Below are positions 24,267 to 38,989 of a DNA stretch of 64,000 nt, one piece after another. The notes beneath the pieces were generated by a model. The model ran no database searches and was not told where the DNA came from. It was given only the letters and a program-made list of their open reading frames with translations. The stretch lies in the NCBI GenBank assembly GCA_047967505.1, contig CM106538.1; one strand, given 5' to 3'. The first letter of the stretch is position 1. Every line of letters begins with the position of its first letter. Source of the DNA: Dipteris shenzhenensis. Lineage: Eukaryota. A program made the position numbers and the translations under genes.

Positions 24267-24271
24267 ATAGT
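24258..24271 (-). promoter_or_regulatory. Putative Pol I initiation motif ACTATATTATGGGG (downstream half of split promoter)
   Basis: Resembles the plant rDNA start consensus TATA(R)TA(N)GGG; ~750 nt upstream of 18S. Confidence 0.65.
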
Positions 24272-24781
24272 TGTAAGGGCCCGGTAGTTCTGGACTTAGT
24301 CTCCAGTTGTGAGCACCTTACGTCGGCCCCGTTTTCGAGTCCCAACCTCCCTTAATGTCTCAGTCCTGATACCACAATCCCCTTTATGCGTAGCTTAGCC
24401 AAACACGACCCCTGGCATGGGCCGTTTATCCCACTACACCACGCCCCACTCGGCAAGCCCTTAGGCTTCACGATCTTTGGTTTGCAGAGTCACACGGGTC
24501 ACCAAGACCCCCAGGAATGTCCACCATGCAACGTCCTGATCAGACCACGTTTCTTTCCCGGTTGGCGGCATCTACGTGGGTCAGCTTGTCTAACCCCTTC
24601 AGGCTCACCTCGAGTCCCGGCTCCGTACCCAACAGTTCACGGTTTATACAATGGTATGGAGAACACGCATGGCCCTCACCGTTCCCCTCACTTTCACGTG
24701 CCCTCAACTCGACCACCACAAGGTCACAACCCACAAGATGGCATGATGACATTACTTGCAAGATAGTACTAGATGGAGTGC

Positions 24782-26233
24782 GTAATAATGATACTACATT
24801 GAGCCCACGTTTCCATTCTGCGTTACAATCCCCCTTGAGCATTCATTAGATTTTCCTCGGCTCCACGGTTCCTCCTTAACCATTCTCTTTCTTCTTCACG
24901 GCTCTTCCTTGGCCGTTCCCCTTTGTCTTCCCAACCGCTTGTGTTTCTGTCCTTGACTGCCACCATCTCTGACTCCACCATCACCGTTCTTCCTCTTCTA
25001 GATCCGTGTCTTCTAGCTCCATCACCGTTTCTGCTTCTGACTCCTCCTCTGAGTCCGTTTCTGAGTCGCTCTCCGGTTCCATGGTCGGTCCGAATTCACC
25101 CTTGAGGTAGACATCATAGACAAGTCTAAAACCACAAAGAATTCACAGTGCCACCTCTCGGAGTCACCCTCCATATCGAAGCAGTGAACTAACCCTTGAA
25201 GATAGCTCATATCCTTCTTGATCAAGACCGTCACCCATTGTGGCACCTTCCTCATAATCTCGACCACCGTTTGCACTATGCTTCCGTTTGCGTTTTCCAA
25301 TGGTAAACTCCGACCTGCTTTCATCATCAATCCCTTATCCATGGCAACTTGACTTCAGACCTTCCCACTGTGTTGCGCACCACTGTGGTCCCGTTCTATC
25401 ACCAAGCGTCTCCCACCTATGCATTTCCCATCTTCTATGTCTCCCATCCTCTGAGTTCTGATACCAAGTGTGAGGGACCAGGTCCTCGGGCCTTAGTTTT
25501 TTTTTCATGCAGTGGATCTTTCTTGACCCGCCCCCCTCACCTCAAGTGCACCTAGGACTCACCAGCCCCAGATACACCCGACGCTATTCTCAGCTCATTT
25601 GTGTTTTGTGATACCTTTGCATTTTCCAACCAAAACGGGCCCTGGCACGTCCTACACCTAGACGACCGTTTCCACTCCCAGCCACAATGCGTCCTCCCCT
25701 AGACCGCCGTTCACGGATCCTCTGATCCTCACGCCCCTTTCCTGGGCCACTGCTCCTCAAACGGTTCCAGCTTCCCACTTGTATCCCGGCCTACCGAAGA
25801 AGACACACAGACTCACATGCCTGCGCAACACCTGCGGATAGGAACCCCGATTCACAGTTCACACGGAACACCCACCATGCGACGTTCCACCTTTAGCCCA
25901 GCTTGCTTAGAAGTTTACACAACAGTTCATGAATATTTACAAGGGTATGAAAGGAATGGGCCGCTCACCGCTCCCCGCTCACTTTCACGTGCACTCACGC
26001 CCTTCCCACGTTTTGCTTTCCACTGTGTGCCCACAAAAGTGCACCATGAGATCACAACACGTAAAACGGCCCGAGATGTTACTTGCAAGAAAGTTCTAGA
26101 AAGAGTGCCAAACGATGCCTTGATAAAGCTAGACTGCAAGAAAGAGTGTTTACAAGCAACTGAGCGCACAACCGCATGTTTACGTTTTCCTACTAGACGC
26201 AACCTCACATGAAGGGAGACCACCTTCCATATA
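24782..26233 (-). mobile_element. Element C fragment: diverged A-related LTR (25469-26233), PBS and start of internal ORF
   Basis: Starts TATATGGAAGG right after ACTAT (26234-26238) and ends ccctcaca + tggtatcagaac; ORF 25022-25342 is homologous to the A-element ORF; truncated by a deletion at ~24781. Confidence 0.7.
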
Positions 26234-36600: not shown

Positions 36601-38825
36601 CTCCTCCCAATTGATCCATCAAATCATCCAACAATGGCATGGGGTACTTGTTCTTGATGGTAAGTTTGTTGAGGGCGTGGTAGTCCATGCATAGACGTGC
36701 TGATCCATCTTTCTTCATTACAAATAAGACCGGTGCTCCAAACGGGGATTTACTCGGCCTAATAAACCCACTTTCTACCAACTCCATAATTTGTCTCTTG
36801 AGCTCTTTCAATTGAGAATCATTCATCCTATATGGTGCTCTTGCTGGGGGTTCACTACCTGGAATTAGTTCTATCTTGTGGTCCACTCGTCTCTTGGGTG
36901 GCAACCCCTTTGGTAACTCTTTGGGCAGAACGTCTGCAAACTCATCCAAGATCTCCTTTATCCTTGCATCAGTACACGGCTCCAAGACGATTGAACTCGC
37001 CTTTGACTCTACTTCCTCTTTGCCTTCTGCCACACGCATCAACATCACATGCATCTGTGCTCCCTTCTTGACTTCCCTCTCTAGTTGCTTAGCTGAAATC
37101 AACATGACCTTGGCATTCACACCACCCATCTTCCAAGGGTCTCCCATGTTACTCTTTTCTTGTTTGGGCATATTCTTGTCCATTTTCTCCCCTACCTTGC
37201 CTTTCCCTTTACTAGCCTGTTGCTCCAACCTCCTTACTTCTGTAGGGGTGATTGAAGATCTAACACATTTTACCCTGACCGCCTGACCTTGCATGTCAAG
37301 TAATAGTTGGGGGAACATTGCACCAAGGCCTTTGACGAGATGAAAGTGATTATGAGTTCCACACCCGTCTTAAAATTACCTGAGTTTTGACAAGCCGTTT
37401 GAGATTCACACGGATGCCCCAGATTATGCCTTAGGAGGATTGTTGATGCAAGAGGGACACCCAGTTGCATATGTGTCAAGGACATTGGATGCCACTGAAA
37501 AGAGATGGACAATGCATGAGAAGGAGATGCTGGCCGTTGTAGAATGCTTAAGAAAGTGGAAACACTATGTTCAAGATAAGCATACCAAAGTCTTCACAGA
37601 TAACATTACACTAAAGTATTTTCAGACCCAACTCACACTATCTCTGAAGCAGTCTTGTTGGCAAGATTTCATTGTAGAATTTGACATAACAATTGAACAC
37701 AAGCTAGGCAAAATGAACGTCATGCCAAATGCACTAAGTAGAAAGGCAGAATTGATGGCTATCACTATGGCATAAGGCACACTCTTGGAGAGAATCAAGG
37801 AACTTATGGAAAAAGACCAAGGCATAGAAGATGTAGTGAAACAGATTAAAGAAAGCTCCGTACCATGGGGCATGTACAATGAAGATGAAGGTTTACTCTA
37901 CGTCTATGAATACAGGCTATATGTTCCAGATGATTTAGAACTCAAGAAGACCATATTGTGGGAATGCCATGATTGCAAGCTAGCAGGACACTCAGGGCAG
38001 CACAAGACTTGGGATAGAATGAAGCAACATTTTTTTGGGCCAGGAATGCGTGAAGACGTCATTGAATATATCAGGACGTGCCCAACATGTCAATTTGTCA
38101 AAGACCAACGTTTTGCAAAGGCAGGAAAACTCCAACCCATGCCCGTTCCTTCAAGGCCATGGGATGTTGTGAGCATGGACTTCATCACATCGTTACCTCT
38201 CTCTCATGGGCACAATGCCATCTTTGTGGTGGTGGACTATTTTTCCAAACAAGGCCATTTCATTCCTGTTAAGCCACCCATTACGGCAAAGCATACAGCT
38301 AACTTATATTTCTCTTATGTGTTCAAGTACCATGGTTTACCCTTGGCCATTGTCTCAGATCGTGATGCTCGCTTCTTAAGTGATATTTGGACCGAGCTTT
38401 TTAAACTCCTTGGTACACAGCTCCGTTTCAACTCGTCATACCACCCAGCCACTGATGGTCAATCTGAAAGGGAAAACCAAACCGCAGAGCAATACCTCAG
38501 AAGCTATGTCTAGGTAGACCAAAAAGATTGGGCCTCACATTTGGACATCTTGGAGTTTCACTACAAAAGCTCCGTTCATCGTAGCACAGGTTTCACACCG
38601 TTTGAGATAGCCACGGGCAAAGAGATCATCACTCCCACAGGCAAGGGGGTGGGACGAGGACGGCACTGCGTGGGCATGGACTACATGCACTGCACATGCA
38701 CGGAGGGCCCGTTGTGAGGTAGAAAATGTTCCCCTGCCGGGTTCGTTCGACGTTTCTGGCCCCGTTTCGGTAAACCATAGCACAACTAGCGTTATTTGGC
38801 TAAGTGTTGGAAGTGGGACCCTACA
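33672..38825 (+). mobile_element. Galadriel-like chromovirus B (left copy) nested in the A1 5' LTR; RT inverted, 3' region deleted
   Basis: 5' LTR 33672-34045 (TATATGG..CCCTACA); PBS tggtatcagagc 34048-34059; gag 34716-~35580; protease IDTGA; RT inverted ~36054-37308; RNase H; integrase 37785-~38638; partial 3' LTR to 38825; TSD atagc/atagt. Confidence 0.9.
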
Positions 38826-38920
38826 ATAGTGGTTTGCCGCTAGGCACCGCGGCGCCTCCCTTCGCCATAAAACGCTCTAAACACTCACGATAGGTCAACC
38901 CTAAAGTTGACTTCCTTACA

Positions 38921-38989
38921 ATAGTCACTGGTAGCCAGGCAGGGTGGCAGCTCCACTCGTCACAGGTTCCCCTAAACACTCACGGCAGG
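38921..38989 (-). promoter_or_regulatory. Upstream half of putative rDNA Pol I core promoter (left arm)
   Basis: Removing A1 and one TSD rejoins ...ccagtgACTATattatgggg; mirrored at 42271-42339. Confidence 0.65.

Follow-up and report, generated by a model that had tools for sequence, protein, structure and literature searches.

A 64,000-nucleotide (nt) stretch of contig CM106538.1 of Dipteris shenzhenensis (assembly GCA_047967505.1; the whole stretch is hereafter called the window) holds a decayed, plant-type 45S ribosomal RNA gene (rDNA) unit, inside a 40-kb inverted duplication, in which a nest of long terminal repeat (LTR) retrotransposons occupies the promoter. The four insertions that built the nest, named A1, A2, B and C, used one homologous position, the pentanucleotide ACTAT, in both orientations and with junctions of integrase type, that is, complete LTR ends and 5-bp duplications. 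The best explanation, with a probability of roughly 0.7, is site-specific integration into RNA polymerase I (Pol I) core-promoter sequence, propagated by the LTR of the A elements.

In this scenario, a Ty3/gypsy-type lineage would target the 45S core promoter for site-specific integration, with a staggered cut on ACTAT; its members would be B, an autonomous chromovirus, and A and C, non-coding relatives that share primer-binding site (PBS) and LTR-end motifs. Because the A LTR appears to carry a copy of the promoter, every A LTR would be a second landing site and stacks would build up: A1 would have entered the rDNA promoter, A2 the 3′ LTR of A1 and C the 3′ LTR of A2, and B would have entered the 5′ LTR of A1 in antisense orientation. 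A single deletion extending from within C as far as position 222 of the A1 3′ LTR would then have removed both far junctions, after which the whole nest would have been duplicated in inverted orientation and the two copies would have decayed.

Four insertions at one ACTAT position

Coordinates of the left arm follow the minus strand, from the intergenic spacer (IGS) towards the gene, with A1 as the outermost element (Table 1). Read in this direction, the IGS ends in ...CCAGTG-ACTAT and is followed by the A1 leader (the first 95 nt of the LTR), B, the duplication copy, the A1 LTR body, the A1 internal region and the A1 3′ leader, and then by the A2 5′ LTR, the A2 internal region, the A2 3′ leader, C, the A-LTR tail, ACTAT and the external transcribed spacer (ETS). 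The right arm keeps the same order (42335-63281), and both B duplications are perfect there. The leader belongs to the LTR, because in both 3′ LTRs the polypurine tract stands immediately before it.

Exact LTR termini adjoin ACTAT at all four event sites. The original prediction, made from the letters of the window, had placed A1 at the rDNA start motif with ACTAT on both sides, and its duplications were perfect in both arms (4/4 copies). B had been placed in the ACTAT of the A1 5′ LTR, where three of its four duplication copies were perfect, both of those in the right arm (42432-42436 and 48375-48379) and one in the left, the remaining copy having one mismatch. The proposed starts of A2 and C directly after the ACTAT of the A1 and A2 3′ LTRs, respectively, were recovered in both arms: the A2 5′ LTR terminus (TATAAGG...) adjoins 30043-30047 and 58647-58651, and the C terminus adjoins 26234-26238 and 62403-62407. 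The ACTAT of the A2 5′ LTR is empty in both arms (29948-29952 and 58742-58746), as had also been noticed. Both duplications are thus present for A1 and B and one junction each for A2 and C, and a single deletion, inside C to position 222 of the A1 3′ LTR, accounts for the missing far junctions of A2 and C, in agreement with the earlier view that these were lost by deletion. Since the two arms are copies, with 90-97% identity in self-BLAST, we count four insertion events and not eight, where three or four had been expected.

We counted 7 occurrences of the word ACTATNNTATGG in the window where 0.13 would be expected; 0/100 shuffles reached 7; these occurrences are homologous copies and not independent draws. 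By our own estimate, three nested insertions at one given position of a 776-bp LTR would have a chance of ~(1/776)^3, or ~2e-9. An unrelated, intact Ty3/gypsy element, D, sits elsewhere in the nest, within the internal region of right-arm A1, with the duplication CCAAC, which shows that the locus itself does not impose the use of ACTAT; the tally for the window is 4/4 events of the A/B/C lineage at the site and 1/1 unrelated element elsewhere.

The four occupied ACTAT sites are preceded by GCCAG and two bases (26239-26245, 30048-30054, 38831-38837 and the right-arm equivalents) and the only unoccupied one, in the A2 5′ LTR (29953-29959), by GCTAG in both arms, which may hint at a sequence requirement in a very small sample. 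In the right-arm A1 5′ leader, a small replacement at 42403-42414 reads AACCCTAAACC, a heptamer resembling the plant telomere repeat, probably by coincidence.

The A LTR carries a putative copy of the rDNA core promoter

On the minus strand, positions 24271-24258 read ACTATATTATGGGG and form the upstream end of the 5′ ETS, the junction with A1 being ...CCCTTACA/ACTAT/ATTATGGGG. ACTAT lies 3 nt ahead of the A of ATGGGG in the motif TATATTATGGGG, which corresponds to about -8 to -4 relative to the Pol I start predicted from the plant motif. The start motif resembles the plant Pol I motif, and the 5′ ETS of ~750 bp is near the length in Brassica, where the transcription initiation site is TATATAAGGGG and the ETS has 744 bp (PMC4691072).

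Over the 70 nt before ACTAT, the A leader and the rDNA promoter were identical at 35-43 of 70 positions, ungapped and in the same register, in 7/8 leader copies; in the eighth, that of the A1 5′ LTR in the right arm (A1_5R), an indel of 2 nt is present and 27/70 positions matched. None of 20,000 shuffles reached 35 in this anchored comparison. When the seven leader copies other than A1_5R were scanned at all offsets along both strands of the window, the promoter register was the best 70-nt match outside the leaders for 7/7 copies. Both LTR and promoter show the spacing ACTAT, three bases, ATGG, and about 12 of the 20 nt after ACTAT were alike by eye. From the 70-nt in-register match we conclude that the A LTR carries what is most probably a diverged copy of the rDNA core promoter, ACTAT included, at LTR positions 25-110 (roughly -73 to +10), and that the equivalent ACTAT is a homologous site. 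The used ACTAT thus lies inside an in-register homologue of the promoter, in keeping with the proposal that each A-type LTR supplies a new target.

Directly after ACTAT the A LTR starts like a C- or B-type LTR, which looks like the fossil 5′ junction of a C-like element in the promoter; the new start of the A LTR would seem to lie ~95 nt upstream of this former junction. The converse, that the rDNA promoter is a relic of an A-type LTR, we largely but not fully discount: before the homologous 70 nt there are only C-rich IGS repeats and no LTR terminus.

Selection of the site

We infer that a B-type integrase selects the ACTAT position. As the mode of targeting we favour, by analogy with Ty3, tethering to a promoter-bound, TBP-containing initiation factor. 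The SH3-like domain and chromodomain of B correspond in type to the two domains of the Ty3 integrase; direct reading of a short DNA motif would be nearly as likely.

The best-surviving alternative, which we hold to be possible if on the unlikely side, goes further and has the integrase prefer a short word, about GCCAGNNACTAT(N3)ATGG, at any place in the genome; the rDNA promoter and the A LTR would simply share this word, and neither the Pol I promoter nor its factors would play a role. The common GCCAG two bases upstream of every used ACTAT, with GCTAG at the empty site in both arms, agrees with it, as do the insertions in both orientations and the setting of the nest in a dead, probably methylated unit, where Pol I factors may have been absent during some of the events. 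The homology between LTR and promoter, however, extends over 70 nt in register, far beyond what an integrase word would need, which suggests a kept promoter; and the known integrases of LTR elements are weak in target sequence preference, the precise cases using tethering, as described for Ty3 (PMC8632968). Four sites cannot separate word-reading from tethering.

Nesting versus recombination between LTRs

Considerably less probable is that only A1 and B are true insertions and that the A1/A2 and A2/C junctions arose by unequal LTR recombination that left an LTR-internal-LTR-internal-LTR array, an alternative named in the original prediction and tested here at this locus. This explanation further needs either a tandem duplication of 95 bp at the spot or joining through microhomology at TATATGG, and two events at ACTAT would coincide by chance or through a mild sequence preference. 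In its favour, A2 and C are without far junctions, the leaders 30043-30137 and 29948-30042 stand head to tail in the manner of a tandem duplication, and microhomology is available, as the A LTR continues behind ACTAT with TATATGGAGG, which is similar to two of the LTR starts, TATAAGGAAG and TATATGGAAGG.

The LTR partner test favours nesting over unequal crossover. Counting only changes present in both arms, which hence predate the duplication, we found 24 private changes in the lineage of the A2 5′ LTR, against 7 in the A1 5′ LTR and 3 in the A1 3′ tail (p = 0.003 and 5e-5, respectively), so the outer LTRs form a pair and the middle LTR comes from another copy; the outer pair was ~2% apart when the palindrome formed. 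This pattern favours nesting because an array from one element predicts a star-like pattern and an array from two elements predicts unlike outer LTRs. The 95-nt leaders contain one informative site, position 2 with G or A, which pairs A1 5′ with A1 3′ and A2 5′ with A2 3′, a signal that is weak and too small to decide and that leaves recombination some room.

The junctions themselves also argue against recombination, since each coincides with base 1 of a full-length LTR, and every such LTR has its own PBS behind it. The C LTR belongs to a different family: identity to A falls from 90.5% in the 95-nt leader to 71.5% in the next 281 nt precisely at the C junction, and this drop right after ACTAT places the join of C exactly there. 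Two full insertions that share a 5-bp duplication in homologous context would, by our own estimate, have a chance of ~1 in 1024 for a 5-mer, and a single deletion explains both missing junctions.

We also rejected a circular A element that recombined with the promoter, which predicts the LTR body beside the IGS and the leader beside the ETS, whereas complete LTR ends were seen on both sides. An artefact, either a mis-assembled palindrome or the chance recurrence of a TA-rich 5-mer in repeats, is very improbable: palindromes and rDNA are hard to assemble and the order is read from the assembly, but the arms differ by 4-7% with arm-specific events, whereas the arms of a chimeric fold-back should be almost identical, each arm by itself contains the complete nest, and the count of ACTATNNTATGG is far above expectation.

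Several points weigh against targeting of the promoter. The identity between leader and promoter is weak (50-61%) and visible only in the anchored, ungapped comparison; the background maximum of the window scan was 35-37/70, so that the margin was only 1-2 matches for some leaders; a stringent local alignment of the promoter with the LTR site was not significant (421/2000 shuffles scored as high), nor was the part downstream of ACTAT alone (1624/2000). The promoter is known from a pseudogene unit, without the 18S 3′ end, the first internal transcribed spacer (ITS1) and 5.8S, and its Pol I start is a position predicted from the motif. The site was studied at a single locus whose arms are copies, with n = 4 events of which only two have both junctions. 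Finally, among 80 metagenome loci with relatives of the B reverse transcriptase (RT), kept from 571 confirmed loci at 53-67% identity, 0/80 showed similarity to the rRNA genes, ETS, IGS or A, B or C LTRs of the window; a crude scan found an LTR-like pair at 13 of them, with two candidate duplications, one of them clean (TCCAC, locus L044). These 80 loci are distant relatives, too distant to bear on the A/B/C family. An exact search of metagenome contigs with a degenerate 30-mer from the LTR leader gave 0 matches.

The elements of the nest

A1 and A2 are non-autonomous LTR retrotransposons of ~4.45 kb with 776-bp LTRs, possessing LTRs, PBS, polypurine tract and duplication and no gag or pol. 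Their ends are TGTAAGG...CCCTTACA, the PBS is cTTGGTATCAGAGC, which we take to match the initiator tRNA-Met, the polypurine tract is GAACGGGGGAGTG, and ACTAT stands on both sides. No coding capacity was detected: the long frames of A1 and A2 matched no Pfam family and gave no tblastn match with the B or D polyproteins at E <0.01.

B is a Ty3/gypsy chromovirus, because of its domain order, SH3-like domain and chromodomain. Gag, protease, RT, RNase H and integrase follow one another in one frame (Pfam order) broken by in-frame stops only, and after a frameshift a Tf2-type SH3-like domain and a chromodomain are found on the integrase (PF00385, 29.0 bits against a cut-off of 25.1, E = 1e-6, 42847-43041, minus strand). 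Among plant LTR lineages, chromodomains are confined to the chromoviruses, 94% of which have one (PMC6317226). The 374-bp LTRs are 93.3% identical, in direct orientation and flanked on both sides by the 5-bp duplication ACTAT; both run TATATGG...CCCTACA, with 5′ TA in place of the canonical TG. The PBS reads TGGTATCAGAGC in the left-arm copy and TAGTATTAGAGC in the right-arm copy. B lies antisense to A1. The right-arm copy has the ancestral order; in the left-arm copy 1256 bp (36053-37308) are inverted and ~0.8 kb is deleted at 38638/38639, so that half of one LTR is gone together with the chromodomain and the C-terminal end of the integrase. In database searches the RT of B had its best relatives among plant and alga proteins (Closterium, Asteraceae, Solanum) at 60-69% identity, listed without clade names.

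C had been regarded as kin of B, which did not hold: the first ~275-281 nt of its LTR are 71.5% like the A LTR body and only the first ~13 nt are B-like, so that C is instead related to A. A, B and C have in common ...ACA-CT-TGGTATCAGA(G/A)C and similar LTR ends, as would be expected of non-autonomous elements that use the integrase and reverse transcriptase of a B-type element. D has other LTR ends and another PBS; it has a 1904-aa open frame without chromodomain and LTRs that are 96% alike. Its 5′ LTR begins with ~33 nt that are absent from the 3′ LTR copy.

The rDNA relic and its inverted duplication

The rDNA unit is a pseudogene, because its 18S and 28S model matches are separated by only ~95 nt (21617-21830 region, minus strand): it lacks ITS1, 5.8S and the final ~100 nt of 18S, and even permissive thresholds brought out no match to 5.8S. 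The 18S gene (21712-23511) carries no element; B is inside an A LTR and A1 at the promoter. Between the arms, which are 90-97% identical with a substitution divergence of 4-7%, transitions dominate 3.5-9 to 1 and about half of them are in CpG context, which fits long-term cytosine methylation of a silenced relic. Each arm has private rearrangements, namely D and the 1.1-kb deletion in C on the right and the inversion and deletion in B on the left; the inverted duplication is therefore old and real.

The homology between IGS copies ends at 16706 = 42085, the same point where the palindrome arms start, and no second promoter copy was found in the downstream IGS of the left unit. About 21 nt past 16706 the minus strand reads TGGTATCAGAGC, resembling a PBS (region 16674-16706, 42085/42086), and the 1.8 kb beside it is unlike any of the elements A, B, C and D. 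Beside the relic there are 37 copies of a 182-bp satellite and C-rich subrepeats of ~95-110 bp (4552-11287; 928-2715). An intact 1178-aa frame on the plus strand (11386-14922) with a DUF7869 domain (E = 1.8e-54) is probably a transposase-like gene of a DNA transposon; Streptophyta were commonest among its neighbours in the protein atlas. When sequencing runs were searched with an ETS query, only two small ones matched, both with 0.06 of the sampled words in common.

Table 1 Features of the rDNA relic and the nested elements in the window.
Feature	Position	Strand	Remarks
28S rDNA	18232-21616	minus	rRNA model match
18S rDNA	21712-23511	minus	rRNA model match
Arms of the inverted duplication	~23529-39177 and 42086-64000	inverted	self-BLAST
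rDNA start motif	24258-24271	minus	ACTAT (24267-24271, A1 duplication), then ATTATGGGG; 5′ ETS follows to the 18S start at 23511
A1, whole	24272-38920	minus	ATAGT (ACTAT on minus) at 24267-24271 and 38921-38925
A1 3′ LTR tail	24272-24781	minus	LTR positions 222-776; ends ...CCCTTACA; groups with A1 5′ LTR
C, PBS and 687 bp internal	24782-25468	minus	PBS cTTGGTATCAGAAC; deletion joins C to A1 3′ LTR tail
C 5′ LTR	25469-26233	minus	TATATGGAAGG...CCCTCACA; terminus adjoins ACTAT 26234-26238
A2 3′ LTR leader (first 95 nt)	26234-26328	minus	ends in ACTAT 26234-26238; polypurine tract GAACGGGGGAGTG before it
A2 internal region	26329-29265	minus	no detectable gag/pol
A2 5′ LTR, complete	29266-30042	minus	empty ACTAT 29948-29952; own PBS after it
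A1 3′ LTR leader	30043-30137	minus	ends in ACTAT 30043-30047; A2 terminus adjoins
A1 internal region	30138-33003	minus	non-coding; PBS beside 33004
A1 5′ LTR body	33004-33666	minus	TATATGGAGG...CCCTTACA, then CT and PBS TGGTATCAGAGC
B, left-arm copy	33672-38825	plus	ATAGC 33667-33671 (one mismatch), ATAGT 38826-38830
A1 5′ LTR leader	38826-38920	minus	TGTAAGGAAG...GCC ACTAT
Second A1 duplication (38921-38925) and 70 nt of upstream rDNA promoter	38921-38995	minus	in-register match to LTR leader
Right arm, 70 nt upstream of promoter ACTAT, and ACTAT	42265-42339	plus	ACTAT 42335-42339
Right arm, A1 duplications	42335-42339 and 63277-63281	plus	ACTAT, perfect
Right arm, A1 5′ LTR leader	42340-42436	plus	ends in ACTAT 42432-42436
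B, right-arm copy	42437-48374	minus	5938 bp; LTRs 42437-42809 and 48001-48374
Right arm, second B duplication and A1 5′ LTR body	48375-49060	plus	ACTAT 48375-48379
D, intact Ty3/gypsy, unrelated	50519-57233	minus	CCAAC 50514-50518 and 57234-57238; right arm only
Right arm, A1 3′ LTR leader	58557-58651	plus	
Right arm, A2 5′ LTR	58652-59427	plus	empty site 58742-58746
Right arm, A2 3′ LTR leader	62313-62407	plus	
Right arm, C remnant	62408-62726	plus	~13 nt of LTR start and internal region; ~1.1 kb deleted relative to left arm
Right arm, A1 3′ LTR tail and ACTAT	62727-63281	plus	ACTAT 63277-63281, then ATTATGGGG and ETS

Discussion

LTR integration directed to polymerase start sites and chromoviruses associated with rDNA are already known; nucleotide-precise targeting by LTR retrotransposons is known mainly at Pol III genes, from Ty3, and rDNA-specific insertion mainly from non-LTR elements. 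A promoter-targeting habit such as the one proposed here would be undescribed for LTR retrotransposons of this kind. Our literature search, mostly of open literature and without supplements, found no LTR element at a Pol I promoter and no 45S promoter copy in an LTR, and the accessible text of a 2024 review of rDNA and transposable elements (PMC10946416) lists neither an LTR element at the Pol I promoter nor an element with a 35S/45S promoter in its LTR.

The Galadriel-clade elements Beon1 of beet, TRRT of tomato and Monkey of banana are confined to or enriched in 35S rDNA, with mapped insertions in the 18S gene, Beon1 at position 736 with the duplication GTAGG, and their spread by targeting or by segmental duplication was left open (PMC3605345, PMC10946416). 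They resemble the present lineage as plant chromoviruses in rDNA with 5-bp duplications in both orientations, and inverted rDNA repeats each with an element were seen on beet long reads (PMC3605345, PMC10946416). The site differs, being the 18S gene there and the promoter, with separate nested insertions, here; B is a chromovirus without clade assignment.

Cassandra and Ajax are terminal-repeat retrotransposons with the 5S rDNA Pol III promoter in their LTR (PMC10946416, 10.1101/2023.07.14.548913), and like the A elements they are non-autonomous LTR elements whose LTR has rRNA-gene promoter sequence. They differ in that theirs is a well-conserved internal 5S Pol III promoter, in contrast to the weakly conserved upstream core of a 45S Pol I promoter, and in that the promoter copy of the A LTR acts as a landing site in the present data. 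One may speculate, though we think it doubtful, that the A family is to Pol I what Cassandra is to Pol III, with a working 45S core promoter in its LTR. The first ~100 nt of the A LTR would then act as U3, with the A in TATATGG as the Pol I start; the 5′ ends of the A-body, B and C LTRs (T[G/A]TATGGA[A]GG) would mimic the displaced sequence, so that a sense insertion at ACTAT would rebuild the junction of promoter and initiator and the newcomer would be transcribed by Pol I from its first bases. If true, the lineage lands on and borrows the strongest promoter of the cell, and the A LTR spreads copies of a Pol I promoter genome-wide.

The non-LTR retrotransposons R1 and R2 and the DNA transposon Pokey likewise insert with nucleotide precision into multicopy rDNA (PMC10946416); they differ in using target-primed reverse transcription or a transposase and in their site, the 28S gene. 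According to a 2013 abstract, non-LTR retrotransposons were until then the only ones observed to have strict target specificity for genes in multiple copies (PMC3706591).

Also comparable is Ty3 of Saccharomyces cerevisiae, whose joining points are -6 and -2 relative to the Pol III start, with a 5-bp duplication, and whose integrase contacts TBP and Brf1 through a C-terminal beta-barrel and a vestigial chromodomain (PMC8632968). Ty3 and the lineage described here belong to the same superfamily and share a 5-bp duplication a few bases upstream of a start (a predicted start in the present case), insertion in both orientations and an integrase with a small beta-barrel C-terminal domain and a chromodomain. 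They differ in the target, Pol III genes for Ty3 and here a Pol I promoter with a motif-predicted start, and in that the Ty3 LTR is without its target. If the pattern is found genome-wide, it would suggest a route by which rDNA units become silenced relics, and it would reveal a mobile element that brings a landing site along in its own sequence and thereby builds self-propagating nests, together with a natural Pol I-promoter-directed integrase comparable with the Ty3-TFIIIB mechanism.

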